From Dissostichus eleginoides (taxonomy: Eukaryota): DNA of 64,000 bases. Shown here piece by piece: positions 25,068 to 52,365 of this stretch. The translations under genes were made by a program, and so were the position numbers. Positions within the stretch are counted from its first letter, which is position 1, and each line of letters begins with the position of its first letter. The stretch covers positions 26,420,913 through 26,484,912 of the forward strand of contig CM062274.1 in the NCBI GenBank assembly GCA_031216635.1, given 5' to 3'. The notes beneath the pieces were generated by a model. It saw nothing but the letters and a program-made list of their open reading frames with translations, did no database searches and was not told where the DNA came from.

Positions 25068-25070
25068 GTG

Positions 25071-25411: not shown

Positions 25412-25456
<45 letters not shown>
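25412..25456. repeat. (CA)n microsatellite
   Basis: tcacacacacacac...acacgcgc. Confidence 0.9.
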
Positions 25457-27034: not shown

Positions 27035-27038
27035 GTAG

Positions 27039-30560: not shown

Positions 30561-30666
30561 TACTGTATTCAAGTAAAATGTATACAAAATGATTTTCCTC
30601 CAGAGGTGATTAAAATAGTTATTTCCACTTTGTATCTCTAACTCCTTCACTGTGTGCTCTCTGCAG

Positions 30667-30831
30667 GATGTGTTCACCATCAGTGTGGGCAATCTGCCGC
30701 CCAATGCGACCGTCCTCATTAAAGTCACGTTTGTGTCCGAGCTGGTCGTCACGGACGGGTTAATTTTCTTCCATCTCCCTGGGAGCGTGGCTCCATGGCA
30801 GGAGAGTGCGGCGCTCAACCAGACCACACAG
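30667..30831 (+). CDS. parp4: parp4 exon 17 (VIT)
   Basis: Translation DVFTISVGNLPPNATVLIKVTFVSELVVTDGLIFFHLPGSVAPWQESAALNQTTQ (human DVFTVSVGNLPPKAKVLIKITYITEL...ATVAPWQQDKALNE). Acceptor ctctgcag|, donor acacag|gtaaag. Confidence 0.9.
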
Positions 30832-32205: not shown

Positions 32206-32243
32206 GTCACTGTGGAGAAGGTGTGTGTGAAAGATGAGGCGAG
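32206..32243 (+). CDS. parp4: parp4 exon 18 (short)
   Basis: Translation VTVEKVCVKDEAR (human DTVEKICIKEIGT). Acceptor gatcaacag|, donor gcgag|gtgagc. Phase links exons 17 and 19. Confidence 0.75.
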
Positions 32244-32555
32244 GTGAGCTATGTTTTGTATTTTGACTATTTTAATGCACTTTAGCTTAATTGTAATCCT
32301 TCAATTTGACACCACCTTTTGTTCTGAATGTTTGTGAAAAAGCACACTGTCCATTAACTTGTTTATCCACAAATATTGCATCAATGACACTTTTGTCCGT
32401 TAATAATTTGTCATTATCTCAGTTAAACATTTGGATAGAGAAATAAGTTGTGTTTTTCATCGTTGCCTCTTTGTCCTTCTTACTGTGTTTTTGTAATGTA
32501 GACTTTAATGTACATCACATTAAAGGCTTTGCTCAATCTGTTGTTTATTTCTCAG

Positions 32556-32637
32556 AGAGTTCACCCTGGACATGTCGATTGAGATGCCGAATGAGATCAC
32601 AAAGCTGCGTTGCATCAGCCATAAAGTCAAGATCAAG
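32556..32637 (+). CDS. parp4: parp4 exon 19
   Basis: Translation EFTLDMSIEMPNEITKLRCISHKVKIK (human SFSLTMSIEMPYVIEFIFSDTHELKQK). Donor atcaag|gtaatc. Confidence 0.85.
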
Positions 32638-32827
32638 GTAATCTGTGTTTGACATTTGTTTGGGATTTTTTAGACATTGTTACATGGCTGTCAGTTATCG
32701 TCTCTGTCTTACTGTGTTCCTCCACACATCAAGAAATAACAAATATTGTACACTTCTATAGAAATAGCATGTATTCTCTTGACTTGATGCGTTTGGAAAT
32801 GCAGACAAAAGTGTACCAAAAATATGT

Positions 32828-33070
32828 AAAATGCCTTAAAGGTGGGGTAGGTAAGTTTGAGAAACCGGCTCGAGATACACTTTTTGTTATATTCCATGGA
32901 ATGCTCTTAACATCCCGATAGCAATGAATATCTTAAGTGCTTTGACAAAAAATCGTTCGTGTGTGTTGGAGGAGGGGCTCTGTAAGGAAGTGGCAGATTT
33001 TTTCAGGTTGTGTATTTTCAAATTCTAGCGCACTCGAGCTGGTTTCTCCAAAATTACCTACCCCACCTTT
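32828..33070 (+). mobile_element. MITE family A copy (TIR AAAGGTGGGGTAGGTAA..., internally deleted)
   Basis: aaaggtggggtaggtaagtttgagaaaccggctcgag ... ctcgagctggtttctccaaaattacctaccccaccttt. Long palindromic termini. Confidence 0.65.
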
Positions 33071-33476
33071 AATGCTAAATTGTTTGGCATTTTGATCATG
33101 TAGCCGTACATTGCACAACCTGGATAATGAAAAGTAAAATGTCTACGTATGTAATTCTACTATTGGGGTTGTCATTTCTACCTCACTCTAGTGCTGAAAT
33201 GATGCCAGAGTTTTTTATAATTAACAATATCTTGATTTAGCTAAATAGTTTTCATCTCCAAATCTCCCTGGCACAGCTTCAATAAAATACCTTGTTTTTT
33301 TATCATACCAAAATTAGTTTTGTCTTTATCTGCTAATCAGACTGCATAAATGTACAGTTTTTGTATCGGATTACGCAGATTTGTCATTATGTTGGAGGTA
33401 TCTTACACTAAATATTTGACTCGTCGTTACTATGTTTGATAGTATAGTCCATAATAAAATAAAATGATTTCTTTAT

Positions 33477-33899
33477 GTTGGGATAATACTGAATGTACTC
33501 TTCCAATATCAGAGTACACATGATAACAAAGGCCCTACGTAACTGTGTACATGACAGGATGTATGATTACCTAGAAGAGCATCAGGACTGTTTTAGGCAT
33601 ATGACAGCTATGTGATTAACATGATGATTCAGCTTCTATGGAGATAGACATATGACAAGCATGATCATTTCTGACGTGGAGCTAATCTGAACTAAACATT
33701 GAATACTGCTTTCTATTCCTCCATCTTGTGACTGTGTAACTCCCTCTCTTGTATATAAGCATGTGAAGGACACTTTTCAGGGGAACTATTTGTCCCAAAT
33801 GCTCTGTATGTGATGACTACTTCCATTATTACAAGGATAATTAATACATGTATCCTGACATTGAAGCTCAAGCCGGTGACGAGTGATATTTTCCTAACA
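33477..33899 (-). mobile_element. MITE family C copy 2 (inverted orientation)
   Basis: gttgggataatactgaatgtactcttccaatatcagag ... gtgatattttcctaacac is the reverse complement of copy 1. Lies in parp4 intron 19, ~60 bp upstream of exon 20. Confidence 0.65.
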
Positions 33900-33960
33900 C
33901 TTTATGATCTTCATGTGTATCCTTTTTTCTTTTCTGTGTGTTTGTGTGATATTCCCACAG

Positions 33961-34098
33961 AAAACCGACTGTAAGGCAGTGTTGAGCGTGCTGCCAGGAG
34001 AGGTCATGGGTCCAGTTGGCTTCATGCTGTCCGTCACTCTGTCAGAGGTCCACCTGCCCAGGATGTGGGTGGAGAAACACCCCGACAAGGACAGCCAG
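33961..34098 (+). CDS. parp4: parp4 exon 20
   Basis: Translation KTDCKAVLSVLPGEVMGPVGFMLSVTLSEVHLPRMWVEKHPDKDSQ (human RTDCKAVISTMEGSS...LPRMWVEKHPEKESE). Confidence 0.9.
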
Positions 34099-34124
34099 GT
34101 CTGCATGTCTGTCTGCATGCATTC

Positions 34125-34705
34125 CTCTCTTTATCTCTCTCTGGAGCCAAGGCAGAACGTATACAAGTTAGCGCTGAGCTTCAGTCTGCAACGTTCAAAA
34201 CAACAGATAGAGCCAGACATCTAGGTGTCGTCATGGACTCTGACCTGAGTTTCAACAGTCACATTAAAACAGTTACTAAATCAGCCTACTATCACCTAAA
34301 GAACATATTAGGATTAAAAGACTAATGTCACAGCAGGATTTGGAAAAACTTGTCCATGCTTTTATCTTCAGCAGACTTGACTACTGTAATGGTGTCTTCA
34401 CAGGTCTCACTAAAAAATCCATTAGAAAGCTGCAGCTGATTCAGAACGCCGCTGCTCGAGTCCTCACTAACACTAAGAAAGTACTTTTAAATCCAGGCTG
34501 AAGACTTTTCTCTTTGCCGCTCTTTTAATTGAACTATTCATATCTTAAACTGCACTGTAACTTTTATTCATGTATTTTGTCTTTTAATGTTTATTTTATT
34601 ATCTTTGCTTTTTAATGACTGTTTTTAAATGCCATTTTCTTAATGTCTTTCATTTTGTAAAGCACTTTGAATTGCCTTGTGTTGAAAGGTGCTATATAAA
34701 TAAAC
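34125..34705 (+). mobile_element. Non-LTR retrotransposon 3' fragment (teleost-common repeat)
   Basis: Translated remnant ...DSDLSFNSHIKTVTKSAYYHLKNI...LIHAFI.SRLDYCN...KLQLIQNAAARVLT, then tail gtaaagcactttgaattgccttgtgttgaaaggtgctatataaataaa. The same tail occurs at 21285-21365 (-), 51440-51840 (+), 30985-31085 and 4225-4290. Confidence 0.55.
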
Positions 34706-34774
34706 TTGTCTTGCCTTGCCTCTCTTCATCTCCCTCTGTCTCTTTGTTTAAACATCTCTCACTTTCTCCTCTAG

Positions 34775-34964
34775 GCCAGCATGTTAGTTTTCTATCCAGA
34801 CTTTGAAGTGAACTCCGAGCGTGAATCTGATGAACTCGTCTTGCTGCTCGACACGTCGGAGTCCATGAAGGGAGAGTCTCTCATCTTGGCCCAGAAAATC
34901 GCCCTGAAGGTCCTCAGACAAATCGATAACAAAACCAAACTCAATGTCATTTTATTTGGCACAG
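34775..34964 (+). CDS. parp4: parp4 exon 21 (vWA domain start)
   Basis: Translation ASMLVFYPDFEVNSERESDELVLLLDTSESMKGESLILAQKIALKVLRQIDNKTKLNVILFGT (human ACMLVFQPDLDV...VIICLDCSSSMEGVTFLQAKQIALHAL...KVNIIQFGTG). Contains the vWA MIDAS-like D-x-S-x-S motif. Coordinates cross-checked against ORF 34781..35002. Confidence 0.9.
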
Positions 34965-35391
34965 GTCAGTTTGAATGTGTATTCATTTTGGGTAAAAATT
35001 GATAAAGCAATACGGGGAAGTACAAGTTAGAAAGGTGAGACAATGTTAAACTATCTCACCATTAATGAGTAAGCTAAAAGTAATTTGACTGAATCAAATA
35101 AATGAAATAAAAGATGAATAAGTTATGTAATAAAACTGCAAGGCACAAGCCATGACACTGCTTTGGTTTTGATAATATGTTATTTACTCTTACATTCATT
35201 AGTGCTTCAGCACTTCCTCTCACGTCATCCAACATTTCAAGTACAAGAAAACTGCTTTTAGGGACTTTCCGTCTGAAGTCAACTCTTATTTTACATAAAA
35301 GTCTCCTCTTATTCCAAACTCAGTTCAACCAATAGATTATAATTTTAGCGAAAGTATAATGTGTTTTTTTTTCTGTGTGTTTGTCTGTCAG

Positions 35392-35462
35392 ATCACAAAG
35401 ACGCTTTCCTCACAGCACGGCCGCTCTTTGAAGCTCAACCGGCAGCAGAAACATTTATCAAG
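35392..35462 (+). CDS. parp4: parp4 exon 22 (vWA)
   Basis: Translation DHKDAFLTARPLFEAQPAAETFIK. Acceptor gtctgtcag|, donor atcaag|gtgagt. Phase links exons 21 and 23. Confidence 0.75.
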
Positions 35463-36154
35463 GTGAGTCTTTGGTTCATTAATATAACATAGAATGAAGG
35501 TTCATTCTATATATAGCTATATAACATTTTAATCTATAAAATGTATCTCACCTCTCTGTGTAATGTACTGTAGTATCGACTAAACCACCTTAAACGACTT
35601 ACCAATCACTGTACTGTAATAACATATTTTCAGTATACTACACTTGAGTTTTCGGCCATGACAGGAACTTGGTCCTGTGACACATGGACTCGATAAACTT
35701 GACTATTCCTTACAATATATTTCTCATATCTCTAAAATAAAACAGGAAACGATATTGAGAAGTATTGCCTTGGCAAAATTGGTCAGTGTAAGATGAATTT
35801 CTTATTTTAGTTTACGGCTTTCTATAACGACATACAGAATAATACTATATTAGATTTGAAAAGTAAACTAGTCATTGAAGAGACTTAAAAGTAATTCCAG
35901 AACATACTGGAAGGAACTGTTTTAGCTGTACACAAAACGTGTGCTGTTGTTTTTATCAAACAGGTCCGTTTTACACAGAACTTATTTTTTACAATATTCC
36001 AAAAGCCTATGGAGAAATCCCATTGCTTTTTTGTCGGGGGAACCCATGCTCAGCTTATTTCCAAGTCGGCCTACAAAAATACGTCATCACTGTACCACTC
36101 TATAAACCCGTTTCTGATTGAGATTCTCATTCCTCCTCCTCTCCCTGCCACCAG

Positions 36155-36342
36155 CTCTCCTCTCCAGTAGGGGGCAGCACTGAGCTGTGGCGGCCCCTGC
36201 GAGCTCTCAGCCTGCTGCCTCCGTCCCGCGGCGTCAGGAACCTGCTGCTGCTGTCGGACGGACACATCCAGAACGCAGAGCTCACCCTGCAGCTGCTCAG
36301 AGACAACGCCGAGCACAGCCGCCTCTTCACCTGCGGCCTCAG
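36155..36342 (+). CDS. parp4: parp4 exon 23 (vWA)
   Basis: Translation LSSPVGGSTELWRPLRALSLLPPSRGVRNLLLLSDGHIQNAELTLQLLRDNAEHSRLFTCGL (human ...GNTDFWKTLRYLSLLYPARGSRNILLVSDGHLQDESLTLQLVKRSRPHTRLFACGI). Confidence 0.9.
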
Positions 36343-36981
36343 GTCTCAAAGGGTCATAGGTCACAGGGGAGGGGGGTTTTCTCAGAAAGGAGAATACATT
36401 CCTGCGTTTTAAAGGTCCCCTATTATACTGTTTTTCATCAATATATTATAGGTCTCAGATATAAAATCTTATTTTACCTGCCCCTTCTTAAAAAAAATAA
36501 CAACAAACCAAATGAAATAACCATACGAACGTAAAATAAAAGCAACTATTCTTTCAGTCACAGTTGCTTACAAATACTGAAACATAAAACCAGAACACAA
36601 TCAAAAGTAAACTTCAGACTGTCTGATTACGCTTTCTTTATACATTTTCTTAAACATATTGATCTAGTTATATGATTGGAAATATGTCCTGACACCAGAG
36701 ACACAAAGACATAATGGCTGAGCTGTCTAACAACATAAGAATGAAAACAAAGTAAACACAAGTCTGAATGAAAATAGAACAGAAATGGGGGAATGTCCCT
36801 ACTAAGTGTGTAAGGAATCTCACTCTCCCTCATAACCACGACCGATACGGGTTGTAACTCTCTCAGCTTTAATGACAAAACTTGTTGTATTCAGCCTTGC
36901 CTTGCTTTGCACACTGAGGTTCTTTTTCACAACAGACATTTTAAAGTTGCTGTTTTTTTTATGTTTGTTCGGTCATTTCAG

Positions 36982-37081
36982 CCCGACAGCCAATCGGCAC
37001 ATGCTCAGAGCCCTGGCTCAGGCCGGGGGCGGAGCCTTTGAGTTCTTCGACACAAAAACCAAACATAACTGGACAGATAAG
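36982..37081 (+). CDS. parp4: parp4 exon 24 (vWA)
   Basis: Translation SPTANRHMLRALAQAGGGAFEFFDTKTKHNWTDK (human GSTANRHVLRILSQCGAGVFEYFNAKSKHSWRKQ). Confidence 0.9.
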
Positions 37082-37565
37082 GTAGGACTGACTAGCTTTA
37101 CATTTTATTATAACACATTATTGGACTTTTTTACCCAATGCAAAACATGAATTTGAATCTGATGATCTCCATATGTGTTGAAAGTATCCACATGTTTCCC
37201 AAGAGGACCTAACACGTGTAATGTTGTAAAATGGGCCGACAGACTTTCACATTGAGAAAGAAATTGTTTTATTCATGTGTTAACCCTTTGTTAACTCTTC
37301 ACCCTTCAGTAAAGGGAACGGAGAACTTCCACATCAACACATTGTGCAATATAAATACCATTACCATCATTACAAAACACTCGCTGCTATATAACATGTG
37401 CAATATTATTATTATTAACAATGTGCTATGATAAACGTGCAATTAGGGTTGCACTACTAATTACTGGTTATATTGACATAAATTATGTGACCGTCTATGT
37501 TTCATGTAGATATTTAATTGCTCTTTATAAATAAAGTCTTATCTTATCTTTGATTTTGGCGGAAG

Positions 37566-37736
37566 GTTGCATCTCAGCTGCATCGTATGGCGTCTCCCAG
37601 CTGCAGTTCAGTGTCAGTGAAGTGGCAGCAGTTCAACCCGACAGCGCCCCCTCCTGTTCAAGCTCCCAAGCAGCTCCACGCTCTGTTCAATGATTGCCAC
37701 ACCCTGGTGTACGGCTTTGTGCCGCACTGCACTCAG
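37566..37736 (+). CDS. parp4: parp4 exon 25
   Basis: Translation (VASQ)LHRMASPSCSSVSVKWQQFNPTAPPPVQAPKQLHALFNDCHTLVYGFVPHCTQ (human ...RLCSPSCHSVSVKWQQLNPDVPEALQAPAQVPSLFLNDRLLVYGFIPHCTQ). An alternative in-frame acceptor lies at 37578 (atctcag|ctg). Confidence 0.85.
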
Positions 37737-37743
37737 GTACACA

Positions 37744-38258
37744 CTTAAAGGTCCCCTATTATACTGTTTTTCATCAATATATTATAGGTCTCAGATATAT
37801 ACAAAACATGTCTCTGAAGTGTTTGGCTCCAAACACCAAACAGATCATTGCAGCATCCCATAATCCCCTCTGTTTCAGCCCTGTTTCAAAAGTGCTGATT
37901 CTCTGTCTGTGTCTTTAGATGAAAATAAGGAGCCCCTCCCCACGCCCCTCTGAGAGATATTTGGTTAAAAAGAACACAATGGTGCTCTAGGAGGAGATTC
38001 AGGTGATAAGGTGGGGGGGGGGGTTACCTTGGTTGGTGATTGGCTAATGGTTTCACAAGCAAAAAATCATTATGACATCATAAAGTGGCCAAAATCTGAT
38101 CAGTTCATTTTCAGACATATTTTTATATAAATAGATCAGGACAAAAAGAGAGATAATCTTTTTTCCTGAAACTTTCAGAGTCTCTTTACACAGAGGGGAC
38201 ACATGTTGATGTAGAAGAGACATGAAAAAGTGCATTTTGCATAATAGGTGACCTTTAA
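37744..38258 (-). mobile_element. MITE family B copy, inverted relative to 30048-30560
   Basis: Starts ttaaaggtcccctattatactg and ends cattttgcataataggtgacctttaa. Internal sequence is co-linear with copy A in reverse complement (ORFs 30020..30256 and 38053..38382 translate alike). Lies in parp4 intron 25. Partial copies at 36408-36468 and 49268-49430. Related termini at 6766-6900 and 57345-57480. Confidence 0.7.
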
Positions 38259-39195
38259 TATACACGACTGGAAACAGCTTACTTTGCTTAGCCCAGGGGT
38301 CTGCAACCTTTTTGACCAAAAGAGCCATTTTGCTCCCTTTTCCAACAATTCTTTTTGTCTGGAGCCGCAAAACATATTTCATAGCTTGATAGCTTATAAA
38401 GTTGGATTTATTGTTATATCACAGACAAAAACTACATTTTTTTTTGCATTTATTATTTATTACATTATATAAAACTCTTAACCTCTAATAAGAAACAAAG
38501 AACTCCTATAAGGAGAATTAAAAAAAATACACAGGCCTACTTTAAAATAAAATAAACACAGCACTTGGGGAGTCCTCTGCACATTTGAAGGAAAGAAAAT
38601 AGAATTAAAATTGACCCACTTTGAAATAAATAAAACATAGCTGCACCCTAAAAAGAGTTAACTGATTGAATTATGACTGAAGATCGTCAGCTGTCTTCCT
38701 CTTCCGTTTTTCTCCTTGATACGTAAAGGCTGCAGCACCTTTGATGACTTCTCTCCACATATCAAACATACCGGTAAACCAGCATCGTGCCGGGGGTCAG
38801 GTTATTCACCTGTAAGAAAAGCCGCTGGCGCGGGACCGTAGCAGGATATGACGCATATTTTAGTTGACCTAATTAAAACCGTTTTGTTTTTTATTTATGT
38901 GTCACAGTATCACCTCAAAATACAAGATACGAAACATTTTCAGCCATGCAACAAAATGTAAATAGTCCTACAAATACTTTTATTTCCTACTTATTTTTGT
39001 CTAAGCTCAAGGGAGCCAGAGCAGAGGGCTTAAAGAGCCGCATGCAGCTCGAGAGCCGCAGGTAGCCGACCCCTGGCTTAGCCTATAAAATATTAAAAAC
39101 TTGATATGAACACAATAGGGCAAAAATATTTTAAAAGCTTCAATATTATCCAGCATTTTTCCTTGATAAATGACTCAAATAATGACTTATCACAG

Positions 39196-39276
39196 GCCAC
39201 CCTGCTCGGAAATCTCAGCGGTCAGGAGCTCCAAACCATGGTTTCAACCAGTGAGCTGCAGAAGACCAGAGGCACA
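39196..39276 (+). CDS. parp4: parp4 exon 26
   Basis: Translation ATLLGNLSGQELQTMVSTSELQKTRGT (human ATLCALIQEKEFRTMVSTTELQKTTGT). The donor ggcaca|gtaaga runs straight into (CA)n. Confidence 0.9.
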
Positions 39277-39281
39277 GTAAG

Positions 39282-39332
<51 letters not shown>
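39277..39332. repeat. (CA)n microsatellite starting at the parp4 exon 26 donor
   Basis: ggcaca|gtaagaacacacacacaca... Confidence 0.95.
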
Positions 39333-39334
<2 letters not shown>

Positions 39335-39616
39335 CACTCTCCAGTCCCTTTTGTATTTGTTAATCCTTCTGCTTGCACTTCTACTTTGAAAAACATTAAT
39401 GCCATGTAACGTTGATCGTCTGTTTATACACGTTTTGTGTTGTTCAAAACGTCCTCTGAATCCATGAATCCTGAATAACAGTTGATGAAACTGTTTGTTA
39501 ACAAAAAATTATACCATCTTACATAATTGCACTCATCTTAACTAGTTGACCCTGCAGACACTGATGCAGGTTGTTGTTGATTATAGATTATGATGTGTAT
39601 TAATGTGTGTGTTCAG

Positions 39617-39695
39617 TTTCTTCACAAGCTCACTGCGAGGGCCCTCATCAGGGATTACGAAGACGGAAGCCTGGATACCAATGAAGCCGAACATG

Positions 39696-39697
<2 letters not shown>
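39617..39697 (+). CDS. parp4: parp4 exon 27
   Basis: Translation FLHKLTARALIRDYEDGSLDTNEAEHE (human MIHKLAARALIRDYEDGILHENETSHE). The donor catgag|gtgtgt is the first repeat unit of a ~190 bp (GT)n tract. Confidence 0.9.
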
Positions 39698-39775
<78 letters not shown>

Positions 39776-39809
39776 TGTGTGTGTGTGTGTGGTGGTGTGT
39801 GTGTGTGTG

Positions 39810-39887
<78 letters not shown>
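39698..39887. repeat. Long compound (GT)n microsatellite starting at the parp4 exon 27 donor
   Basis: catgag|gtgtgtgtgt... about 190 bp with a few ggt/gtt interruptions. ORFs 39590-39981 on both strands are artifacts. Confidence 0.95.
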
Positions 39888-39890
<3 letters not shown>

Positions 39891-39962
39891 CAAAAGAAAC
39901 CTGCATCGCTTTAGACGTCTAGTCCCAGCTCCAGGTGTTAAACTGGACCTTTTTTGTTTCAG

Positions 39963-40058
39963 GGAAAGAAAGCGGAGCTGAAGCGCTTCATCATCCAGTT
40001 AAGCAAAGAGTTCTCCATCCTGTCTCAGTTCACCAGCTTTGTGGCCATCGAGGAAAGG
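39963..40058 (+). CDS. parp4: parp4 exon 28
   Basis: Translation GKKAELKRFIIQLSKEFSILSQFTSFVAIEER (human MKKQTLKSLIIKLSKENSLITQFTSFVAVEKR). Confidence 0.9.
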
Positions 40059-40159
40059 GTTTGTTAAATGAAAAACATTATTTATTTATATTTGTCCACC
40101 TTTCCAGCCCAGATTTGAAGGTTTTGTAGCACCCAACCATCCCCTCTACCTTGTTTTAG

Positions 40160-40318
40160 GACTCAGAACAACCAGAGGAAGGCTTTACAGACATCCCAAA
40201 GCTACTCGCCGAGGAAGATGTGGACTTCCTCCCCTACATGGGCTGGATTTCTCCTCAGGACAGTGAAGAGGAGGACTCTGAGGATTATTTGGAAAGGAGG
40301 AGGTCCAAATGCTTAATG
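40160..40318 (+). CDS. parp4: parp4 exon 29
   Basis: Translation DSEQPEEGFTDIPKLLAEEDVDFLPYMGWISPQDSEEEDSEDYLERRRSKCLM (human DENESPFPDIPKVSELIAKEDVDFLPYMSWQ). Donor aatg|gtaaagtcac. Confidence 0.88.
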
Positions 40319-40420
40319 GTAAAGTCACATTGTGCAATCAGGGGACAAGAAAAAAGCATCTTTACTTGTTATGATTTACTAATTGACAATATCCTTTCTG
40401 CCTTCGTCTCTCCGTTGTAG

Positions 40421-40480
40421 GAGTTTGGGTTCCAAGCAACCGCTGAGGATGACTCTGAAGAGATCTCTGATTGCTTAATG
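40421..40480 (+). CDS. parp4: parp4 exon 30 (duplicated mini-exon)
   Basis: Translation EFGFQATAEDDSEEISDCLM, with acceptor ccgttgtag| and donor aatg|gtaaagtcac. It belongs to a tandem exon+intron unit duplication, so its inclusion in mature mRNA is uncertain. Confidence 0.65.
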
Positions 40481-40582
40481 GTAAAGTCACATTGTTTAAT
40501 CGGGGGACAAGAAAAAGGCATCTTTACTTGTTATGATTTACTAATAGACAATATCCTTTCTGCCTTCGTCTCTCCGTTGTAG

Positions 40583-40873
40583 GAGTTTGGGTTCGAAGTG
40601 ACCGCTGAGGATGACTCTGGGGATGCTAAGGATGAGTCTGAGGATGAGTCTGAGGATGCTAAGGATGAGTCTGAGGATGAGTCTGAGGATGAGTCTAAGG
40701 ACTTGTCTAAGGATGAGTCTGAGGATGAGTTTGGGGATGCTAAGGATGAGTTTAAGGATGCTAAGGATGAGTCTGAGGATGCTAAGGATGAGTCTAAGGA
40801 TGCTAAGGATGAGTCTGAGGATGAGTCTGAGCCTCTGGTTGGATTAAAAAGTGATCCAATAATCCAAATGAAG
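40583..40873 (+). CDS. parp4: parp4 exon 31 (acidic octapeptide-repeat exon)
   Basis: Translation EFGFEVTAEDDSGDAKDESEDESEDAKDESEDESEDESKDLSKDESEDEFGDAKDEFKDAKDESEDAKDESKDAKDESEDESEPLVGLKSDPIIQMK. It carries 24-bp (DESEDAKD-type) repeats. The frame is confirmed by ORF 40598..40948. Confidence 0.8.
40617..40840 (+). repeat. parp4: Coding 24-bp tandem repeat (acidic DESEDAKD-like octapeptides) inside parp4 exon 31
   Basis: gatgagtctgaggatgctaag-type units repeated ~9 times with variants (gac ttg tct aag, gat gag ttt ggg/aag). Confidence 0.85.
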
Positions 40874-41453
40874 GTAATGTCACATTGCATTTACTATAAT
40901 AATGAGGAAACAAAAGCGTTTGCTTGTTGTTATTTGAAGATGCCCTAAAATCCCAAACTTCCCTCCAGAGGGAATTTCTCTGAAAAATAAAGCATTTTTT
41001 GTACATTTAAGCATGTAAACAGACAGGAGAGGCACAAAATACAAATATGAACCTGAAAATGAGGATAATATGTCCTCTTTAATAAATAACACTTTAACAA
41101 GTTGCATTTGTCTCCCTTTGTGCTTTGTATGATAGGGGACTTATTCCCGTAAAATGTTCAGCAACAAATTGCTGCTTCACATTTGCTATTTTAAAGTGAC
41201 AATAAATGCATCGCTTTCAGATAGAGCTGTTATTTGTAATGCATTGACTGTGTTAAAACTAAACAAAAACATACCAATTGGCAGGTTAACAAATCCTTAA
41301 TGAGTGTCCTCGTGTGGCGTCACTCACATGTTATTAGAGAGGCAGGACAATGCAATACTGCAACATTAATTTTTGTTTGAAAAAAATTCAATTGTCCAGT
41401 TATCATTTGTAAGAAAAAGGTTTTGACTTTTTTATTGTTTCTGTGTTTTTTAG

Positions 41454-43351
41454 CATGGGTCCTCTCTGAGAAGAAGAGGGGACGTGGACAGATCGGCACC
41501 TTCAGCAGCGTGTGAACCCCCCATGCGTGATTTTGAAGTAGCACTACATTCTTTTGAAATGCATCAATTGGATGAAGAATTGCATTTGGATTCAGACTGC
41601 TCATTTCATCCTCCATCATCTCCTCCTTTCCACATGAAGGAACTCACCCAAAAACGTTCTTTCCGTGCGCCTCTCCCTCTGATCAGTGGTCTTCCAAGCC
41701 GCTCATTTCATCCTCATGGACTAATGGCAGCAGAAGTTCCCAGACGCCACGTCATCATGTTCGGTGCAACGCAAGCTGCAACTGACTCAGATGTGTCGAT
41801 GAAGATGAGCGATGATGGGCCTGAACCTCCTGTGACAGGGAAAGCATTTTCATTCTCAAGACAGAAAAAAGCACTCTCCTATTCTGCTCATTCACTTCAA
41901 TGCCAGTCAACCTCTCAAGACCCTCCAGCTCCCCCTCCTCCTACTCTTGGTCCAGCTCCTCCGCTAGCTGAAATTTTACTTGGCACTAATGCCATGTCGG
42001 ATCAGGTCAGTGAGTCACTGGTGGGACGCGCTTTCGGGAACAGAGCGCTATCAGCTTCCTATCAAACAGGAACCTCCTCTGGTCTCTGGGATGCAGGATT
42101 GTTTGCACCCCAGGAACGCAGCTCGAGTTTTGGATCTCCTGTGAAAGGTCAGTCAGGAGGGTTTTCCAGTAGTGCAGCATCTTTATTCTCCTCAGATCAA
42201 AGACAAAAAGGAAGCTTATTTTCTGATGAACTTGAAAGGGCAGGCTTTGGTCTCATGGGTTGTGCGCTTGAAGAAGAACCCGTTAGACAAGATCAGCCAA
42301 TGAAAGATGCCCCTCCTGTTTCACTTGATGAAGCATCAGATGTCGATGTAGAGCGACGTATGCACAAATCCACAGGTAGACCATTAGCAATGCTTGAAGA
42401 AGATGATCCCTCATGTGGAAGTTCTTGGGGAGGACTGGTCCACATGAAGGAACTCGCCCAAAAATCTCCTCTTCGTGTGCCACTCCCTCCGGGTGGTCGT
42501 CAAATTCCCTCATTTCATCCTCGAGAACAAATGGCAGCAGAAGTTCCCCAACGCCACAGCATCATGAACGGTGCAACGCGAGCTGCAACTGATTCAGATG
42601 TGATGATGATGATGAACGACCGTGCGCCTGAACCTCCTGTCACAGGGAAAGCATTTTCATACAGAAATGCACTGTCCTATTCTGCACATTCACTTCAACG
42701 CCAGTCCACCTCTCGAGACCCTCCAGCTCCCCCTCCTCCTACTCTTGGTTCAGCTCCTCCGCTAGCTGAAAGTTTACTTGGCACTAATGCCATGCCGGAT
42801 CAGGTCAGTGAGCAAATGGAATCACAAGCTCTCAGGATCAGAGCGCTATCACCTTCCTATCAAACAGGAATCTCCTCTGGTCTCTGGTCTGGACTCCAAA
42901 GCAGCTTGAGTTGTCCCACCTTTCCAGGTGCTATGAATATCCATGTCGGTGCGTCTGATTTGGATATGACAACTGAATGTGCGACTGAATCTCCTGTGAA
43001 AGGTCAGCCAGGAGGGTTTTCCAGGAGTGCATCATCTTTATTCTCCACAGCTCAGCTCTTATTTTCTGATGAACAAGAAATGGCAGGCTTTGGTCTCAGG
43101 GGTTGTGCGCTTGAAGGAAAACCCATTAGACAAGATCAGCCAATGAAAGATGCCCCTCCTGTTCCACTTGATGAAGCATCAGGTGTCCATGTAGAGCGAC
43201 GTAGGCACAAATCCAGAGGTAGAGCATTAGCAATGCCTGAAGAAGATGATCCCTCATGTGGAAGTTCTTGGGGAGGACTGCTCCCGCGTAAACGTGGGAT
43301 TGGTTTTTTAAAGGCCTCCAGGATGCGTCAATCAGCTGATCAACCATTTGA
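41454..43351 (+). CDS. parp4: parp4 exon 32 (1.9 kb exon with two ~270-aa tandem repeats; S/P-rich)
   Basis: Open frame 41454-43352 (ORF 41484..43355). Acceptor gtgttttttag|cat is in phase with exon 31. Two ~810 bp tandem copies (FHMKELTQK...SCGSSWGGL / VHMKELAQK...SCGSSWGGL). The proposed donor tttga|gtgagt at 43352 overlaps an in-frame TGA. Confidence 0.78.
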
Positions 43352-43682
43352 GTGAGTCCCCAAACGTTTTTTTGTTTTAATAGATAAGCTCCTACTAAGA
43401 AAACTGTGATAACTATTGAATAATAGTTGTTGACAAAAAATGCTCTACTTATTTATAATTTTTTTAAAGGCTTTGGTTGACAAAATTAACATAGATGAAT
43501 TCATCTGCATGTTAACTGAAAAGTATTGTTGTAAATCCTCTGATTATGTACATGTATGCATGTGGGAAAAAAAGTCAGTATATGTGTGTATTTATGTTTA
43601 CATTCTTTGATTTATGTGTGTTTTTTAATACACAACATCCAGTGTTCTCTAAGAGTGTCCTGTTGTGATCATGTCGTTTCAG

Positions 43683-43749
43683 GAGGAAGTCAGCAGACCC
43701 TGAAGCGCTGAAGCTCAGATGGACAGAGATCTTCCAAATGCAGCATTCG
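43683..43749 (+). CDS. parp4: parp4 exon 33
   Basis: Translation (E)RKSADPEALKLRWTEIFQMQHS. Acceptor tcgtttcag|, donor attcg|gtaaga. It is in frame only with the 43352 donor of exon 32. Confidence 0.75.
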
Positions 43750-44128
43750 GTAAGAAAATATCAAAATGAACGTATTGTTCTCGAGTACCTTTTCTTTTCC
43801 TGCTGACAGGATACAATGACAGCCCTTTGAATGGTTTATCAATTCTGATCCTTTGATCATTTCTGTGTGAAACCCATTTGGGATGATTAGCTGTCGGAAG
43901 GCTGCTTTGCACTTCTTGTTAAAACACTGTAACTATAGCGATACAGCGGTTAGAGATATGTTTACTGACAGCGGGGCAAATTTGGGTTTCAAAAGCAATC
44001 TTATGCAACGTGGCGATGTTCGGTATTATCGTACAAGCATTTTGGAAAAATACTTTAGATGCTTTTAAAAGTACTAATACCTAACTGTGGAAATACTCCA
44101 CTCCTTATCATGCACTCAAACCCTTACT

Positions 44129-44511
44129 TAAAGGTAGGGTAGGTAAGAATGGAGAAACCAGCTTGAGTGCGCTAGAATTTGAAAGTACACAACCGAAAGA
44201 AATCTGCCCCTTCCTTCAGACTTCCTTACAGAGCCCCTCCAACACACACGAACGCGCACATGACCAATGAGGGCACGAGATAAGTTTGTGCACAGATGGA
44301 AGGCTGACAGGCAGGTAGGCCATCCAGTTATTTTAGCCGGGCCGGCTCAGATGATTGGTCGTGCTTTTTACAGCGCACGGCTTCCAAGATGAAATATTTG
44401 TATGTATTTATTGTCAAAGCATTTAATTTATTCATTGCTATCGGGATGTTAAGAGCATTCCATGGAATATAACAAAAAGTGTTTCTGAAGTGAATTACCT
44501 ACCCCACCTTT
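44129..44511 (-). mobile_element. MITE family A copy (full, ~385 bp)
   Basis: aaaggtagggtaggtaagaatggagaaaccagcttgagtgcgctag ... gaattacctaccccacctttaag. In parp4 intron 33. Orientation opposite to copies 1 and 3. Confidence 0.65.
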
Positions 44512-45221
44512 AAGTAAAAGTATATAAACATTATCAGTAAAATGCATTAGTTAATCGTAAGTAAAAGTTTGCAATGAAATATATCATCAGTGAGTGTTTT
44601 ACTATTAAATGGTGTTTTTTGGATGTATTTATTGCTGCAGTAATGCTTATGTTATTGTGCTGCTGCAGATGGTTAAGGTTATATGTACATTGCAGGTCCT
44701 TTACATACAAGTTGAATCTACAGCAATTCATTATATTCTATAAGATTATGTTTGTAGCTTTGTCGCTGTCCTGCAGAACCATGTATCTCTGAACATTTAA
44801 AAAAACGATGTGATCATACATTTTTCTGCTGATCCAAAAGGCTTTTTTCATTATTTATTCACATTAGGAAGTATGATATATTTTTCAACACATAAAGGGA
44901 ACACCTATCCTTCATCAGATTATCACAAACACATCTTAAGATGCATGGTTTTAAACTGGAGAGGAAGGGAATGAAAATTGGTGATCTGAAATCTATTTGC
45001 TGCATAAAAGGGAAATACTCAAATTCAAATTTAAGGTACTTTTATTAAACGTAAATACAGTACTGGAGTAAATGTACTTGGTTGAGTTCCACAACTCTGT
45101 ACATTACACATATAACCTTTTGCACCTTTTTCTATTTCTATTTTTTTTTTTTAGCTGGCACTTTAACCATGGGGGCGTAATTACTACTTTATGAATTTGT
45201 GACATTTTATTTGTGTTTCAG

Positions 45222-45324
45222 GAGGGTTACTGGCAGTTCACCGCAGAGCTGGGTGAGCTGATCAATTTGGATGTGGACCTATTCGCCAACGTGTTCCTGA
45301 AAAACAAAGGCATCCAGTCTCTGG
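45222..45324 (+). CDS. parp4: parp4 exon 34 (MVP-interacting region)
   Basis: Translation EGYWQFTAELGELINLDVDLFANVFLKNKGIQSLG (human EDGFWKLTPELGLILNLNTNGLHSFLKQKGIQSLG). Confidence 0.88.
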
Positions 45325-46204
45325 GTGAGGACTCTCAGAAACAGATGCAGCCTTTAGAGTGGGAATAGATTTGTCATTTCAGATCATTTCCACATCTTTC
45401 TGTGGCCAAAAGATTGGGTTTACACGTGGAGATAGAAGTATCATCGCCGAATAGTGCCAACATGTTCTTATTAAGTTTAATATAACCTTCCAAGCACTAT
45501 AATATTAACCAATCAGACGAGAATGTCCTATTTGTATTCATGAGTTTTTAGTTTTTAAATCATTAAGATGAGTTTCAAAATAACCTGTTAATGACTAAGT
45601 CTCTTTCCTTGTCAAAATATAAGAAAAAACACTTTGATTCAAAATATAACTCCTCTCTTTGGGGGTTCTATTAAAAGGTATTTACCAGTGAAAAGTTTAA
45701 TATTGAATGTAAAATCAGTATTCAAAGTAAGTAAGTTGCGAGAGCCATTACCAGTGTTAAAACTCAAGGGAGAAGAGAACAATAACCTCAAAACTGACAC
45801 ATTTTAGTGTGTGAAAAGGGAGACAATTGCAAACAATTATCATGCCATGCCTCTGCTTTGTAGAGACTTCAATCAAAAGCCACATTTTCCACTTTTCAGC
45901 ACAAGTATATTTCATGATAGTTTGGGTTATATTTGTCCAGGGTTTGAGATTAACATCTGCTTCACAATGGAGATGTAAGAGATGTTTTTGTGGGGCTCCA
46001 AGTGGAAAAATACACTTAAAAAAATGCAACTGTGACATCTCTGTCCACAATAAATGTGCCTGTCTTTCAGTTTTCATTGAGGACTCTCGCATAGTTGCAC
46101 TGCTTTTTCTTTTTTAAGTCTTACAGATATCTCAGCCATGATGATGAGTTTGTTTCCCACGGATGTTAAAAGCATGTACTGTACTTGTCTGTGTGTGTGT
46201 TTAG

Positions 46205-46337
46205 GTGTGAAGGCCCATGCAGACATCCTGAAGCTGGTGGCGACTCTGCTGGTTCTGCAGCTGATGAGAGAGGAGAAGATAGAGGAGGGCAAACTGCTCC
46301 GCACCCTCTTCTGCCTGGACGACTCCCCTCTGCCCAG
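46205..46337 (+). CDS. parp4: parp4 exon 35 (MVP-interacting region)
   Basis: Translation VKAHADILKLVATLLVLQLMREEKIEEGKLLRTLFCLDDSPLPR (human VKGRECLLDLIATMLVLQFIRTRLEKEGIVFKSLMKMDDPSISR). Confidence 0.88.
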
Positions 46338-47290
46338 GTCTGTCCAAAACTTAATCGAACAACATGAAGATCCTGAATAAAAACACCTAAACTGATTCAA
46401 AGCTTAAAGGCTTACACTGCAACCAAAGTACAAAGGTGTGAAAAGAGGAAATGTAACAGGAAGAGAAACACATCACAACACAACAAAGCATTTATCTCTC
46501 GAATCATAACCTTGAGATGCCCATTGACTTTAAACACTTAAATATGTTGTTCTCATTTGCAAAATATTCAATATTTATTGCAATGTTCTTCTCTGGGTGA
46601 TTAATTTTTTTGGTAAATGTTTTTATTGATTTTCTTTCTTTTGACAAAAGCAAGTGATACAGATTCAGTAAGGATATATACACATACACATGCTAACAAA
46701 TCTTAATTTCAATCCCACCACTCTCCCACCCACCACCCATTAACCCATTGAGTTACAGGATACAGAGCCCTTTAACAGTAAATACAGTGTTTTCATAATT
46801 ACACTAGTTCAAGGGGGGCAAAGAAGGAAGAAAAAAAAAAAAGCACAGAGATAAACACAAAGAAAGAAAATTATAATAATGATAATGGAATAGAAAGAGA
46901 AAGAGAAAAATTATGAATCATAATATATAAATATATATTAAATGCTCACCACTCAATCCAACCTTATTCTTTATCAAGTGGATCTTGTAAGGAGTCATAG
47001 AAGTCCAGAAAGGGTTTCCATGTTCTAATAAAGGTGTTAAGGAGCCCCTGAGTAAGAACTTAATTTTCTCTAACTGTAAGAAGTACATAACATCTTTGAC
47101 CCACTGAGAAAAGGATGGAGGGGAATGTTGCTTCCATTTTAGAAGAATCAAACGTCTCGCAAGAAGTGTAGAAAAGGCTATAACTACATGGGCACTGTTT
47201 GGTAGGGTCTGGGTGATTTTTTGAGACTAGCTGTCACTCTATCCAGAGTGGCAACCTGTTTTCATATCGACTTTCTTCTTCTTCCTCCAG

Positions 47291-47561
47291 GCCTGAGCGT
47301 TGGGAGGAGGTGAAGAGGGCGGTGGACTGGGTCTGCTGGGCGGACCGGCAGTACCCGTGTGTCTACAGCCGGCTGGAGTTTGGATTCAGCTGGGAGTCCT
47401 CCACCCGCCAGCTGCTGGGCTTCGAAGGCCTCCCTCCCTTCTCCGCTCTCAGGGGGCTGAACCTGCAGAAGACCGTCCCCAGGTCCTGGTCCACTGAGCA
47501 GGATAGTGAGAGGGAGGTTCATACCCCTTTGCCTTTTTATGGGGATTACATAATCTATTAG
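47291..47561 (+). CDS. parp4: parp4 terminal coding exon 36 (stop TAG 47559-47561)
   Basis: Translation (R)PERWEEVKRAVDWVCWADRQYPCVYSRLEFGFSWESSTRQLLGFEGLPPFSALRGLNLQKTVPRSWSTEQDSEREVHTPLPFYGDYIIY* (human NIPWAFEAIKQASEWVRRTEGQYPSICPRLELGNDWDSATKQLLGLQPIS). Frame matches ORF 47310..47561. Confidence 0.82.
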
Positions 47562-50057
47562 ATGTATTTGTAGCCCTTTTATTGTCAGTGTGTTTACATG
47601 TTCTTAAATAGGTAGATAAAATTGGCTTACTGCAGACCGGATTTATTCAACTTAAACTGCTTCGGGCGGATGTCTACATATCGCCTTTTCTGCACATCAG
47701 CATCTTTTTTCAAATGTATTCCAATAAGGCGATAGCTTATACTGTTTTACACCGTGGGAAGAGTTGCACCCCTCGTCTTTCTTCTGACCGTTCCACCGTT
47801 TTGGTCAAGTTGAAAATATTTAAACTATTAAAGACGCTGTTGACGTCACTGTAGGAAATGACTGTCTCACTGTCAGATAGTAACCATCATAACAACGACC
47901 AAAGAGCCTGTTTGTTGGAGCAGATCTGCCGGTGAGTGTGTCGCCTATATCGTACCATACACATATCATCCTCCTCACTCTAAAGCTGAAAGCTGTGACG
48001 CTCAATCACACAAAATGTGAGAACAAGCATCCTCCTGTTTGTTCTCATAGACACAATGTCAAACAAATACATAGCAAAAATCGATAATAAAATCCAAGGG
48101 GTGAGGCTAGTCTGTCACACAACAATGGTGATACAGTGTCAAGATCTTGCTGTCATAGAAACAACAAAACAACCCTTGGAGCGTTATGTGGACACGCCCT
48201 TATTCGGGGGAAAGAGGATTTAAAGGCTAGATTACATTTCATGGCCATGTACACTGATAGTTATCATCTTGTTCACTTGCATGCAAGTCCACAACAATGC
48301 CTTCAGACAGAGATAGCATCATTGTGACCAGTGATCAAAGGGAAGGTCACGTATGGGTAGCAGTGTATTTGCATGTTTGTAATCATCCCCTCCCAAATAG
48401 TCAAAGTCTACTTCCTCTAAATATTTTACTGGTAAATGTAGTCACAGCTGTCTTCCCACAGTTGAACACACAGTCACATGTTATTATAAAATAAGGAAGC
48501 GGTGCCTTTGTGCCCAAAAAGGGTCAGTTTCTTGGAAACATCTTTGACTGACCTGCTGAATGTGTGTGTTGCTTCTCTGAGTAACCTTGTACATGTGAAT
48601 CTTTATTTGTCTTGTGTTTCATTTATAACTGCTGAAGCACCTTTTGATTATTTTAGTGTAGGATATAGGATATTCTTTCACAGTATATGCAGTTTTATAT
48701 CATGGTAGCGGTATAAATCAGGGTACAGTATAGTATTGTTCTGTAAATTCAATAAGAAGTGGATTAAAACAACCTGTTTTTGGATTATTTTCCTCTTTTA
48801 TTTGGAACTACAATATTAACAAAATCAACCGACTCACGAGAGACAAAGCCAAATACTCAAAACCTTTAAAATTCTGAATGTGAAACACGTTTTAAGGTTA
48901 AACGGTGCAAATAACTTTGACTTTGAAATACATATCAGTCTGACTTCAGTCAATGCAATATGAAGCACCATAAACATCCCACAAGTTTTAATTTCAATAT
49001 ATACCAAAAGAATATATCATTTCATATCATGTTTCATTCAAAAAAGTAAAGTAAAACTCCCTTTTTTTGAAGTACATTACAGTACTCGAGTAAATGTGTA
49101 CATTTTATATAGCTAGATCAGGAAATGGCAACTTTTTTATACAAGATAACACTTATTATAAAAATATGGTGGGTGTATTACATGTTCTCTGACAAGATAA
49201 AGCTCTTGCACACAACAACTTGCTGTTATCAGATAAAAAGCAGCTTTACCACTTCCCATTTTTTCTTAAAGGTCCCCTATCATGCAAAATGCACCTTTGA
49301 TGTCTTTTATACACACATATGTGTCCCCGGTGTGTAAGGAGACTCACAAAGTGTCAGAAAATACAACCCTTTCTCTTTTCCTCCGTACCCAAATCTCTAA
49401 AAATGGGGGTACAACGGAGCTGATCCAGATGTGCTGCGGTCATGACGGACATTACTGAAATGTGGGCTGGCTTTACACCCACGGCCCTATCAGAAACGTC
49501 GCTATCAGAAACAATGCCCGACTATTTTGGAAGTAATATGATCAATGTTTACATTAGCAAGCATCGCTAACACTCAGAGCTAACACTACTGGAGAGAGTA
49601 TGTGTAAAGAAGCAGGATATAAAAAGGTACTCCCCACTATATGTGTTTGTAATCATGAACAAAAATAAAATCTTTCAGTTCCCCAGTTGTCTTCATTTGT
49701 TTTCTTGTGTTTATCAGCATTGATTTAAGATCCCTGCTTTCACAACGATGTCAGCTAATACTCTTTTAAACTTGTCAAAGAGAGCTCTACGGGATCAGTA
49801 CATCTTGAATGTTATTAAACTTCATGGGTTGTTAAGACCATATGTCTCTATTTAACACAATGGACTCTATTATAACACTTATTTCAATGTGCTTCGAGAA
49901 TACTATGTTTTAATCATGGTAATGTCAATAAAGCTGATTTAAATTTGTCTTGACTCTCAGCGTTAGAAAAAAATAGCATTTCCTTATATATGTATATTGT
50001 TTTTTAGATAGATAATTATCTGGTACAGCAATAGGAAAATACTCTTAACACTTGAGA

Positions 50058-50155: not shown

Positions 50156-50225
50156 ATGGAGGAAATCTATCTCAACCTTGACGATGTCAAACCCCTAAGC
50201 TCAAGATCATCAACAAAACAAGAAG
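50156..50225 (+). CDS. C-type lectin gene 1, exon 1 (cytoplasmic tail)
   Basis: Translation MEEIYLNLDDVKPLSSRSSTKQE, ATG at 50156, donor gaag|gtaagg. The paralogous exon sits at 61601. Confidence 0.8.
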
Positions 50226-50297
50226 GTAAGGGTCAGTCAGACAGAGTGAGCTGTGGATTTTGGATTTATTATACTCCCTGGTTTTCTCTGTGTTCAG

Positions 50298-50387
50298 GTC
50301 CCAGCAGATTTCCCCCAGCGTCTGTTCTCGGTCTGGGGCTGCTGGTTGTTTTCCTGCTGGCTGGACTCATCGGCCTCGCTGTCCACC
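50298..50387 (+). CDS. C-type lectin gene 1, exon 2 (transmembrane segment)
   Basis: Translation GPSRFPPASVLGLGLLVVFLLAGLIGLAVH is a hydrophobic signal-anchor typical of type II C-type lectin receptors. Donor cacc|gtgagt. Confidence 0.8.
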
Positions 50388-50605
50388 GTGAGTCTTATTT
50401 TTAATATATATATTATATTAGTTTCATAAGTCATTTTGAACGTGTGATTTTAAGGAGCAATATTCTGCTCTGAAAGATGCACATTTGACCAAAACATCTA
50501 TTGTTTTTCTATTTTTCTCCTAGGGCGAAAGTAGATAACATTCACTTTGGTTTGTGTCAGTCGGATTGCATCAGGTAATTTAAGAAACATCTTTTTTCAT
50601 TTCAG

Positions 50606-50793
50606 ACCATAACTCAGTAGGTGGCGCAGCTGCAGATCTCTCCGCTGTCAAAGCAAACCTGACGTTTGACGTGAGCGTCTCCAGGCCAGAGATCAGCTGC
50701 TCTACTCAGTGACTGAAGAGAGAGACAGACTGAATGCCAACCTCACTGAAAAGACCAGAGAGGTTGACAGGCTTCAGAGTTTGTCCAAACAGA
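50606..50793 (+). CDS. C-type lectin gene 1, neck exon (frame-inconsistent; possible internal acceptor at 50710)
   Basis: Homologous to the lectin-2 neck exon, with a single ...LQARDQL...NANLTEKTREVDRLQSLSKQ unit. Using the canonical acceptor cattcag|acc gives an in-frame TGA at 50710. Only the internal acceptor ctactcag|tg restores the frame shared with the donor caga|gtgagt. Confidence 0.5.
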
Positions 50794-51439
50794 GTGAGTG
50801 CTTTTCTATGACGGTTTTGCACAGGGCTGGGCAATATGGATTATATCAATTGTCATGATATTTTTGAGCAAATACCTCAATATTGCATCGATATTCTAAG
50901 GTTGGCAATTGCTCCTTTGAAATAATAACATGAGCGTACCAGAGAATGTCATTGGAAATGTTATAATGTGATTGAACAAAGATATAATGCAAACTTAAAA
51001 AGGTCAAAGACAAAAGATGTTACACTCTACAATGATGTCTTCATACTAGCGTGTTGTCTTTTCATAAAAATATGAAAAGATAACATGCCAACTTACTATA
51101 TGATGAAATCCAAAGTTCAACAAACTTATCTATTATTGTTGGACAATATCAATATATTGCCAAACCCTTCTGCATAAAAGTGTAGAACACCTTATTTTAC
51201 TCTCAGCACCTTTTCTTCACTCTCTGTTAATTTAATCATACATTTTTTTTATGTGTACAGCCCTTTAAAAAAAATCTTAGTAACATCATTTTAAAAGCTA
51301 AAAAGCTTCAGTCCCATCACTTCACATAATTATAAGATTGTGAATAACTAAATATCTCTTTATTAGGATGTTTTAAAAATGTTGACACCTTGTATTCTGC
51401 ACATTTTTAACTGCTCTCTTTTTATAGGTTCTGTCCCTG

Positions 51440-51840
51440 AAACTGCGCTGGTTCAGCCATTTCTAAAAAAGCCCTCACTTGATTCCCCATTCTTAAACAT
51501 TTTAGACATATTTCCAAGCTCCCATTTTTAGATAAAGTTTTAGAAAAAACTGTAGCAGAATAATTGTTAGCTTTTATCAATGACAACAATATTTTAGAGA
51601 AATTCTAATCTGGCTTTAGAAAAATTCATAGTACTGAAACGGCTCTTTTTGAAGTTTTTAATGACTTGTGTGATTTTATTTGTAGGCTTATTATATTTAT
51701 TTTCTATGTGTTTTTATGTTTACATGCTGTTGTTTAATTATCTAGCTCACCGTGTATTTTTATGTTAGAGCACTTTGTAACTGTGTTTTGAAAGGTGCTA
51801 TATAAATAAAGTGTATTATTATTATTATTATTATTTATAT
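51440..51840 (+). mobile_element. Second copy of the non-LTR 3' fragment family (in lectin-1 intron)
   Basis: Ends ...ttagagcactttgtaactgtgttttgaaaggtgctatataaataaagtgtattattattattattattt (tail + (TTA)n). Confidence 0.45.
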
Positions 51841-52222
51841 GGTGATCTACAAGATATATTTCCCAGGAATGTTTTTTATATCATCTTCCTTTTTTGATGT
51901 CATGTCAGTCAAAATTACCGCCTTTATTGCAGTATTTTTTTACTTGATTCATTAAGCAATTGGACTTATAGTACCGAGTAAGGAATCATAACAGACTCTT
52001 AAAATGATGCAGAGTGAGAGAAGTTTTATCCTTTGTCCCATGCAATGATACCGGTCTATCAGAATAGATCTTGGCTACCATCAACAATGCTTATTGAATA
52101 TGTATTTTTCAAAATCACACAAGGGACAAGAATGCTCTAAGAGTTGAATATTTCAGCAAGGAGTCAACTAAATCTTACAACTCAAAAGAAGGTAATAAGG
52201 CATGTCTTGTGTTTTTTTGCAG

Positions 52223-52365
52223 AGAAAACGTGTCCTGCAGGATGGAGGATGGTCGGTTGTGTCTGTTATCTCCTCTCTACGGGGAAAGCTTCATGGGAAC
52301 AAAGCAGACAAAACTGCAGAGCCAGAGGAGCAGATCTGGTGATCGTAGACAGTAATGAAGAACAG
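52223..52365 (+). CDS. C-type lectin gene 1, CTLD exon A
   Basis: Translation KKTCPAGWRMVGCVCYLLSTGKASWEQSRQNCRARGADLVIVDSNEEQ (CTLD CPxGW...CY...W..S...C...GA.L..I.S.EEQ). Frame matches ORF 52144..52437. Confidence 0.85.

Follow-up and report, generated by a model that had tools for sequence, protein, structure and literature searches.

The coincidence of a stop codon with the 5′ splice site of a phase-2 intron is an already known phenomenon. In the phase-2 introns of Yarrowia lipolytica, the split codon is completed by the first G of the intron and the T-G-A at positions +2 to +4 forms the next codon, so that the donors GTGAGT and GTAAGT create an in-frame stop in every phase-2 intron (PMC2911113). 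The predicted outcome of retention is a premature stop followed by nonsense-mediated decay (NMD), a generic surveillance of unspliced messengers (PMC2911113). Retention may also yield a product: the truncated isoform NKG2D-TR is reported to arise through retention of KLRK1 intron 4 (bioRxiv 10.64898/2026.08.21.746301). In human PARP4, the MINT domain comprises residues 1562-1724 and binds repeats 3-5 of the major vault protein (MVP) inside the vault (PMC12280208).

The stretch analyzed here (the window) comprises 64,000 nucleotides of Dissostichus eleginoides (assembly GCA_031216635.1, contig CM062274.1, positions 26,420,913 to 26,484,912), and all coordinates are counted from its first letter. 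It holds a PARP4 gene whose large linker exon ends in a donor that overlaps an in-frame TGA, an arrangement in which the initial annotation saw a splice-or-stop switch. Position 43351/43352 is very probably the ordinary, constitutively used donor of a phase-2 GT-AG intron between the linker exon and the MINT exons of fish PARP4. This reading builds on the splice geometry, the in-frame joining to a conserved domain, orthologous junctions that are spliced in relatives and the lack of a canonical poly(A) signal. Exon and intron numbers 32 to 36 follow the initial annotation, the exons mapped in this analysis running from 21089 on.

The PARP4 Locus

The window has a GC content of 36-47%, (CA)n microsatellites, a GT-AG exon structure and matches to teleost proteins. 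PARP4 lies on the + strand, with its PARP/VIT/VWA exons from about 21 kb to 40 kb, followed by the 1.9-kb linker exon and four small C-terminal exons. Searches by tblastn with PARP4 fragments (PARP/VIT, P0073; VWA, P0062, P0063, and P0066) placed exons from 21089 to 40300 on the + strand, and the PARP catalytic, VIT and VWA domains thereby form one gene with the C-terminal MINT domain. These upstream exons and the PF26156 C-terminus described below bear out the identification of the gene as PARP4. The locus is 95-97% identical to those of D. mawsoni and T. bernacchii, and the order PARP4 followed by C-type lectin genes is common to the window, Lates and D. mawsoni. An Rfam scan of 41000-48000 on both strands returned no RNA family.

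The lectin genes 3′ of PARP4 are present in at least two copies (50156-52437 and 61601-61931), with an N-terminus of transmembrane type (MEEIY.NLDDV...). In T. bernacchii, a lectin and the last PARP4 exon are joined in one model, P0049. An ORF resembling a retroelement gag is found at 57681-58741.

The segment that matters here is arranged as follows:

41454 to 43351, + strand: large PARP4 linker exon (exon 32), open in frame throughout, acceptor ttttttag/CATGGG
43349 to 43357, + strand: 5′ splice site TGA/GTGAGT, phase 2, GT at 43352-43353, located from the sequence and from orthologous sites
43352 to 43682, + strand: intron 32, 331 nt, AT-rich, with seven in-frame stops
43353 to 43355, + strand: in-frame TGA at donor positions +2 to +4, which would terminate translation only if intron 32 stays in
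43683 to 43749, + strand: exon 33, 67 nt, encoding (E)RKSADPEALKLRWTEIFQMQHS, the start of the MINT or MVP-interaction region; the contig L008 aligns from 43683 to 43750
45222 to 45324, + strand: exon 34, encoding EGYWQFTAELGELINLDVDLFANVFLKNKGIQSLG, donor in phase 1 (GTGAGG)
46205 to 46337, + strand: exon 35, encoding VKAHADILKLVATLLVLQLMREEK...DDSPLP, donor in phase 2 (GTCTGT) with no immediate stop
47291 to 47561, + strand: coding part of the last exon (36), with TAG at 47559-47561 in the window

The Linker Exon

Four upstream exons (39963-40058, 40160-40318, 40421-40480 and 40583-40873), each ending in phase 0, lead in frame into exon 32, which begins at 41454; the donors after the last two lie at 40481 and 40874. 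Orthologous proteins of D. mawsoni (P0001) and T. bernacchii (P0061) cover the linker exon. It contains a tandem duplication of about 800-855 bp (41629-42441 and 42439-43284), which encodes two repeats of about 270 amino acids that are 84-93% identical and which also occurs in T. bernacchii and D. mawsoni. When 1.8 billion representatives were searched exhaustively with the last 300 codons of the exon, P0061 was the sole match, that is, one 50%-identity cluster; on such sequence comparison, the linker is lineage-specific. Between species the tail of exon 32 is 86-90% identical, less than the 92-93% of the adjoining intron, and this lower conservation suggests that selection on the PARP4 linker is relaxed or diversifying.

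Further repeats surround this exon. A 162-bp unit, consisting of a small exon and its intron, is tandemly duplicated (40310-40457 and 40472-40619) and gives rise to the exons 40421-40480 and 40583-40873. The latter includes an array of 9/12/21-nt repeats (40572-40856) encoding an acidic tract of DESEDAK type. In T. bernacchii (L002 10340-10564), the NCBI model P0061 skips a stop-free, in-frame part of 225 nt in repeat 1 of the big exon (PPLAE/R/FSSSA). The boundaries of this segment are not GT-AG, and repeat 2 of T. bernacchii is without it. The omission may be an artefact of mapping between the repeats or an allelic deletion.

Geometry of the Donor and the Stop

The ORF 41484 to 43355 (623 aa) ends in ...SADQPFE followed by the stop, with GAG at 43350-43352 and TGA at 43353-43355. 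That this TGA closes the ORF and overlaps the donor had been noted in the initial annotation, and every coordinate matches the sequence. The acceptor reads ...CATGTCGTTTCAG/GAGG, with AG at 43681-43682 and exon 33 beginning at 43683; the pyrimidine-rich tract in front of the AG is CTGTTGTGATCATGTCGTTTCAG/G. Matches to a branch point are loose only (TTAAT at 54 nt and CTCTAAG at about 31 nt upstream). The GA at the end of exon 32 and the first G of exon 33 form GAG (E), and the frame runs on as RKSADPEALKLRW...

On the intron side the donor is perfect (GTGAGT, consensus at +3 to +6), but on the exon side TGA departs from MAG. With a simple position weight matrix it scores 1.3 bits, in the middle of the range (-4.0 to 4.4) of the 18 donors mapped in the gene, a set taken from the exons downstream of 21089 and from the junctions resolved outside 26075-28965 and 34979-36161. 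The donor is therefore decent, and the description "excellent" was apt for its intron side but overstated for the site as a whole.

Use of the Junction in Related Fishes

The junction 43351/43683 is found in several relatives. The exact junction peptide, SADQPFE/RKSADPEAL, is present in D. mawsoni P0001 and in the T. bernacchii NCBI model P0061, and in both genomes the donor reads GA/GTGAGTCCC, identical to the window. Exon 33 is 100% identical in the T. bernacchii (L002) and D. mawsoni (L006) loci. Two intron-free contigs from public sequencing runs of related fishes, L008 (SRR16542756, 1088 bp) and L009 (SRR5997774, 1297 bp), carry an ORF that is continuous from the linker into the MINT domain. 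In L008 this single ORF leads from the linker straight into RKSADAEVLKLRW... and on to ...LLVH and the stop, so that the contig must stem from spliced RNA. When aligned to the window, L008 and L009 each fall into four blocks (43683-43750, 45221-45327, 46202-46342, and from 47287 onward), which correspond to the predicted exon boundaries. Owing to these blocks, the open frame and the junction peptides, the exon 33-36 chain and the use of the acceptor at 43683 are well supported, judged from relatives. The in-phase joining of the donor to exon 33, proposed in the initial annotation, agrees with the completed GAG codon, with the peptides of P0001 and P0061 and with the start of the contig blocks at 43683.

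The conceptual spliced C-terminus matches 60 fish proteins with E-values down to 1e-136. All 60 are labelled PF26156 (PARP4 MVP-ID), an assignment that takes its authority from the precomputed Pfam labels of these matches, and exons 33-36 accordingly encode the conserved MVP-interaction domain, MINT, as had been proposed. A local Pfam scan of the spliced product found no family, nor did it for P0061, the local library being evidently without PF26156.

The end of the domain differs in the window. The last exon is 99% identical to that of D. mawsoni, and the run at 47477-47480 counts four C, as opposed to five in D. mawsoni and T. bernacchii. Because of this missing C, the conserved C-terminus ...KTVPQVLVH reads ...KTVPRSWSTEQDSEREVHTPLPFYGDYIIY before the stop in the window, the relatives terminating about 26 codons earlier (...QVLVH). 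The shorter run reflects either an error in assembling the homopolymer or a genuine frameshift that alters the last five residues of MINT.

Expected Frequency of a Stop at the Donor

An intron that begins with GTAA or GTGA and interrupts a codon in phase 2 is read as N-N-G followed by TAA or TGA, placing a stop at +2 to +4. The vertebrate donor consensus is GTRAGT, which in phase 2 yields either of these codons. From approximate frequencies of vertebrate donor bases, the probability of a stop at +2 to +4 of a phase-2 intron was computed as about 0.74. The overlap at 43353 arises because T-G-A is part of the GTGAGT consensus in this phase. Five of the 18 mapped donors of the gene are in phase 2, and three of these five carry a stop at +2 to +4:

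23966, + strand: TAG (donor GTAGCG)
25069, + strand: TGA (donor GTGAGC)
43353, + strand: TGA (donor GTGAGT)

The orthologous donor is in phase 2 and carries a stop in six of six teleosts, as TGA in the window, T. bernacchii, D. mawsoni, Lates and Scomber and as TAA in Megalops. Position and phase of the intron are common to T. bernacchii, D. mawsoni, Lates, Scomber and Megalops, the donor reading GTGAGT in the same phase in Lates and Scomber and GTAATT in Megalops. The gecko and cyprinid (Sinocyclocheilus) models have the intron that precedes the MINT exon at another position and in phase 0. Conservation of the stop for its own sake was considered and rejected: the TAA of Megalops results from GTAATT, which indicates that the donor consensus and not a particular stop is kept, and conservation of GTRA explains all cases. 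The coincidence of stop and donor is no more than chance would give.

Alternative Readings of the Site

A regulated splice-or-stop switch, as advanced in the initial annotation, would have intron 32 retained, or the transcript polyadenylated within it, to produce a stable PARP4 ending in ...ADQPFE and hence a vault-free enzyme pool. The position suits such a product, as read-through would end at 43353-43355, precisely where the MINT region begins, and retention gives truncated functional isoforms in other genes, of which NKG2D-TR is a reported example. However, the donor consensus imposes the stop, which is present at most phase-2 donors; moreover, intron 32 has six in-frame stops beyond this TGA, so that the first adds nothing and no selection for it need be invoked. 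No AATAAA or ATTAAA was found in intron 32 (43352-43682), where 0.78 would be expected by composition; the search for a poly(A) signal suggested in the initial annotation thus yielded weak variants only (AATAGA, TTTAAA, and AATACA), the nearest canonical hexamer being an ATTAAA at 44604, in the next intron. Identity of the intron to D. mawsoni and T. bernacchii is 92-93%, not above the 95-97% of the locus, which also argues against a switch, although percomorphs share a conserved 3′ end of the intron. This conserved part consists of the last ~35 nt (43646-43682, TCTCTAAGAGTGTCCTGTTGTGATCATGTCGTTTCAG), shared with Lates and Scomber, with the remainder of the intron unalignable; it probably represents the branch point together with the pyrimidine tract that serve exon 33, only 67 nt long, and it could, beyond these, contain a regulatory element. 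The non-consensus exon side of the donor (T-G-A at -3 to -1) is a further point in favor of a switch and against the ordinary reading, since it could allow some inefficiency of splicing. Yet the fate of an unspliced messenger would be unfavorable. In an mRNA that retains intron 32 the TGA lies 630 nt upstream of the last exon junction, with three exon junctions downstream. Stops located more than 50-55 nt upstream of the last exon junction lead to NMD, and an mRNA retaining intron 32 is for this reason expected to be an NMD substrate instead of a stable isoform. The earlier claim that retention gives a PARP4 without its vault-targeting C-terminus holds in that read-through stops at once and leaves the domain out of the sequence, but not in that a stable isoform would follow. 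No protein ending in ...QPFE was present among the matches, a weak test, because isoforms disappear in 50% clusters and the indexed search had failed to return known positives; likewise, a homologue search with the exon-32 tail alone gave no matches, the known relatives P0001 and P0061 also being missed. With a stop dictated by the consensus, no poly(A) signal, an intron of unexceptional conservation and a position prone to NMD, the switch is not supported and is very unlikely. Its fullest form, in which retention of intron 32 in PARP4 of notothenioids and other percomorphs is regulated through the weak exon side of the donor and the conserved 3′ end, with the TGA at 43353-43355 ending a stable, vault-free BRCT-PARP-VIT-VWA-linker protein, is less likely again; if true, regulated retention would explain the separation of enzyme and MINT in several fish annotations.

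These annotations also bear on the idea that the TGA at 43353-43355 is the true end of PARP4 and that the MINT exons form a separate transcription unit. Several of them give PARP4 products devoid of MINT, which counts against the ordinary reading as well, though their breaks lie upstream of 43351/43683. In Lates calcarifer, a gene of 1364 aa (BRCT, WGR-like, PARP, VIT, and VWA domains) is followed 200 bp later by a MINT gene of 331 aa; Megalops has genes of 898 and 357 aa, D. mawsoni PARP4 is in three fragments, and many short, MINT-only "PARP4-like" entries occur among the protein matches. All such breaks are nevertheless upstream of the orthologous junction, and every model that extends upstream of exon 33 splices across it. 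In Lates (L001 9600-10000), the break falls where the reading frame changes within the big exon, near 9700-9800 and beside a C-rich run. This break may reflect true fission of the gene or an indel in the assembly, and the model downstream of it has the orthologous junction spliced. The single ORF of contig L008 across the junction, the in-frame joining of the upstream exons to exon 32 in the window, and the Sardina, shark and gecko proteins that are continuous from VWA to MINT all stand against two units, and fission at this stop is extremely improbable. The split annotations are best explained by a repetitive, fast-evolving linker exon that is hard to annotate, together with possible assembly indels. 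That exons 33-36 were wrongly assigned and 43351/43683 is not used is hardly credible, given that transcript contigs of other species break exactly at the predicted exon boundaries and that the junction peptide is present in orthologous proteins. A MINT-only ORF from the intronic ATG at 43672-43674, comparable to the D. mawsoni model P0002, was considered as well and rejected; in the window that ORF runs in another frame and ends after 10 codons.

The Ordinary Reading and its Meaning

As an ordinary donor, 43351/43352 would belong to an intron that separates the large, fast-evolving linker exon from the four small exons encoding the vault-binding MINT domain. Its constitutive use in D. eleginoides would be expected from that in relatives. 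The TGA would be positions +2 to +4 of GTGAGT read in the frame of the exon, with no function beyond the generic one of most phase-2 introns: if the intron were left in, translation would halt at once and the mRNA, with three exon junctions downstream of the TGA, would be removed by NMD.

A stop inside a GTGAGT or GTAAGT donor is to be expected at about three-quarters of phase-2 introns, several per large gene. Because it is so frequent, the overlap alone is useless as a flag for regulated isoform switching, and genome scans should filter such overlaps unless a poly(A) signal, an NMD-escaping position, conservation or transcripts accompany them. If the switch were true, it would be a genetically simple way to a pool of PARP4 free of vaults and would bear on the long-standing question of the role of PARP4 outside vaults. 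As the finding stands it matters little, and the value of the check is a negative one.

Comparison with Known Systems

The switch proposed in the initial annotation resembles the reported NKG2D-TR isoform in concept: in both, an unspliced intron would provide the stop and take away a C-terminal domain. The features of that type, namely a canonical poly(A) signal, an NMD-escaping position and raised conservation of the intron, were not found at the window site, which thus lacks the tested marks (signal, position, and conservation) of a regulated intron-retention or intronic-polyadenylation switch.

With human PARP4 the window shares the MINT domain (PF26156): by sequence comparison, exons 33-36 encode the homologous C-terminal helical domain, with intron 32 just upstream. 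The linker exon of the window differs from the human gene in being lineage-specific and internally duplicated. Compared with relatives, the last five codons of the window gene are frameshifted, and the position and phase of the intron are unlike those of the gecko and cyprinid models.

The closest parallel is provided by the phase-2 introns of Y. lipolytica, in which the geometry is the same, the split codon being completed by the intronic G and T-G-A forming the next, and for which the same outcome of retention is predicted, a premature stop and then NMD (PMC2911113). The window differs from that case in that the gene is a vertebrate one, the intron measures 331 nt and six further in-frame stops do the same job. 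The site belongs, with the defining features that were tested, to the ordinary phase-2 GT-AG introns with a stop-encoding donor.
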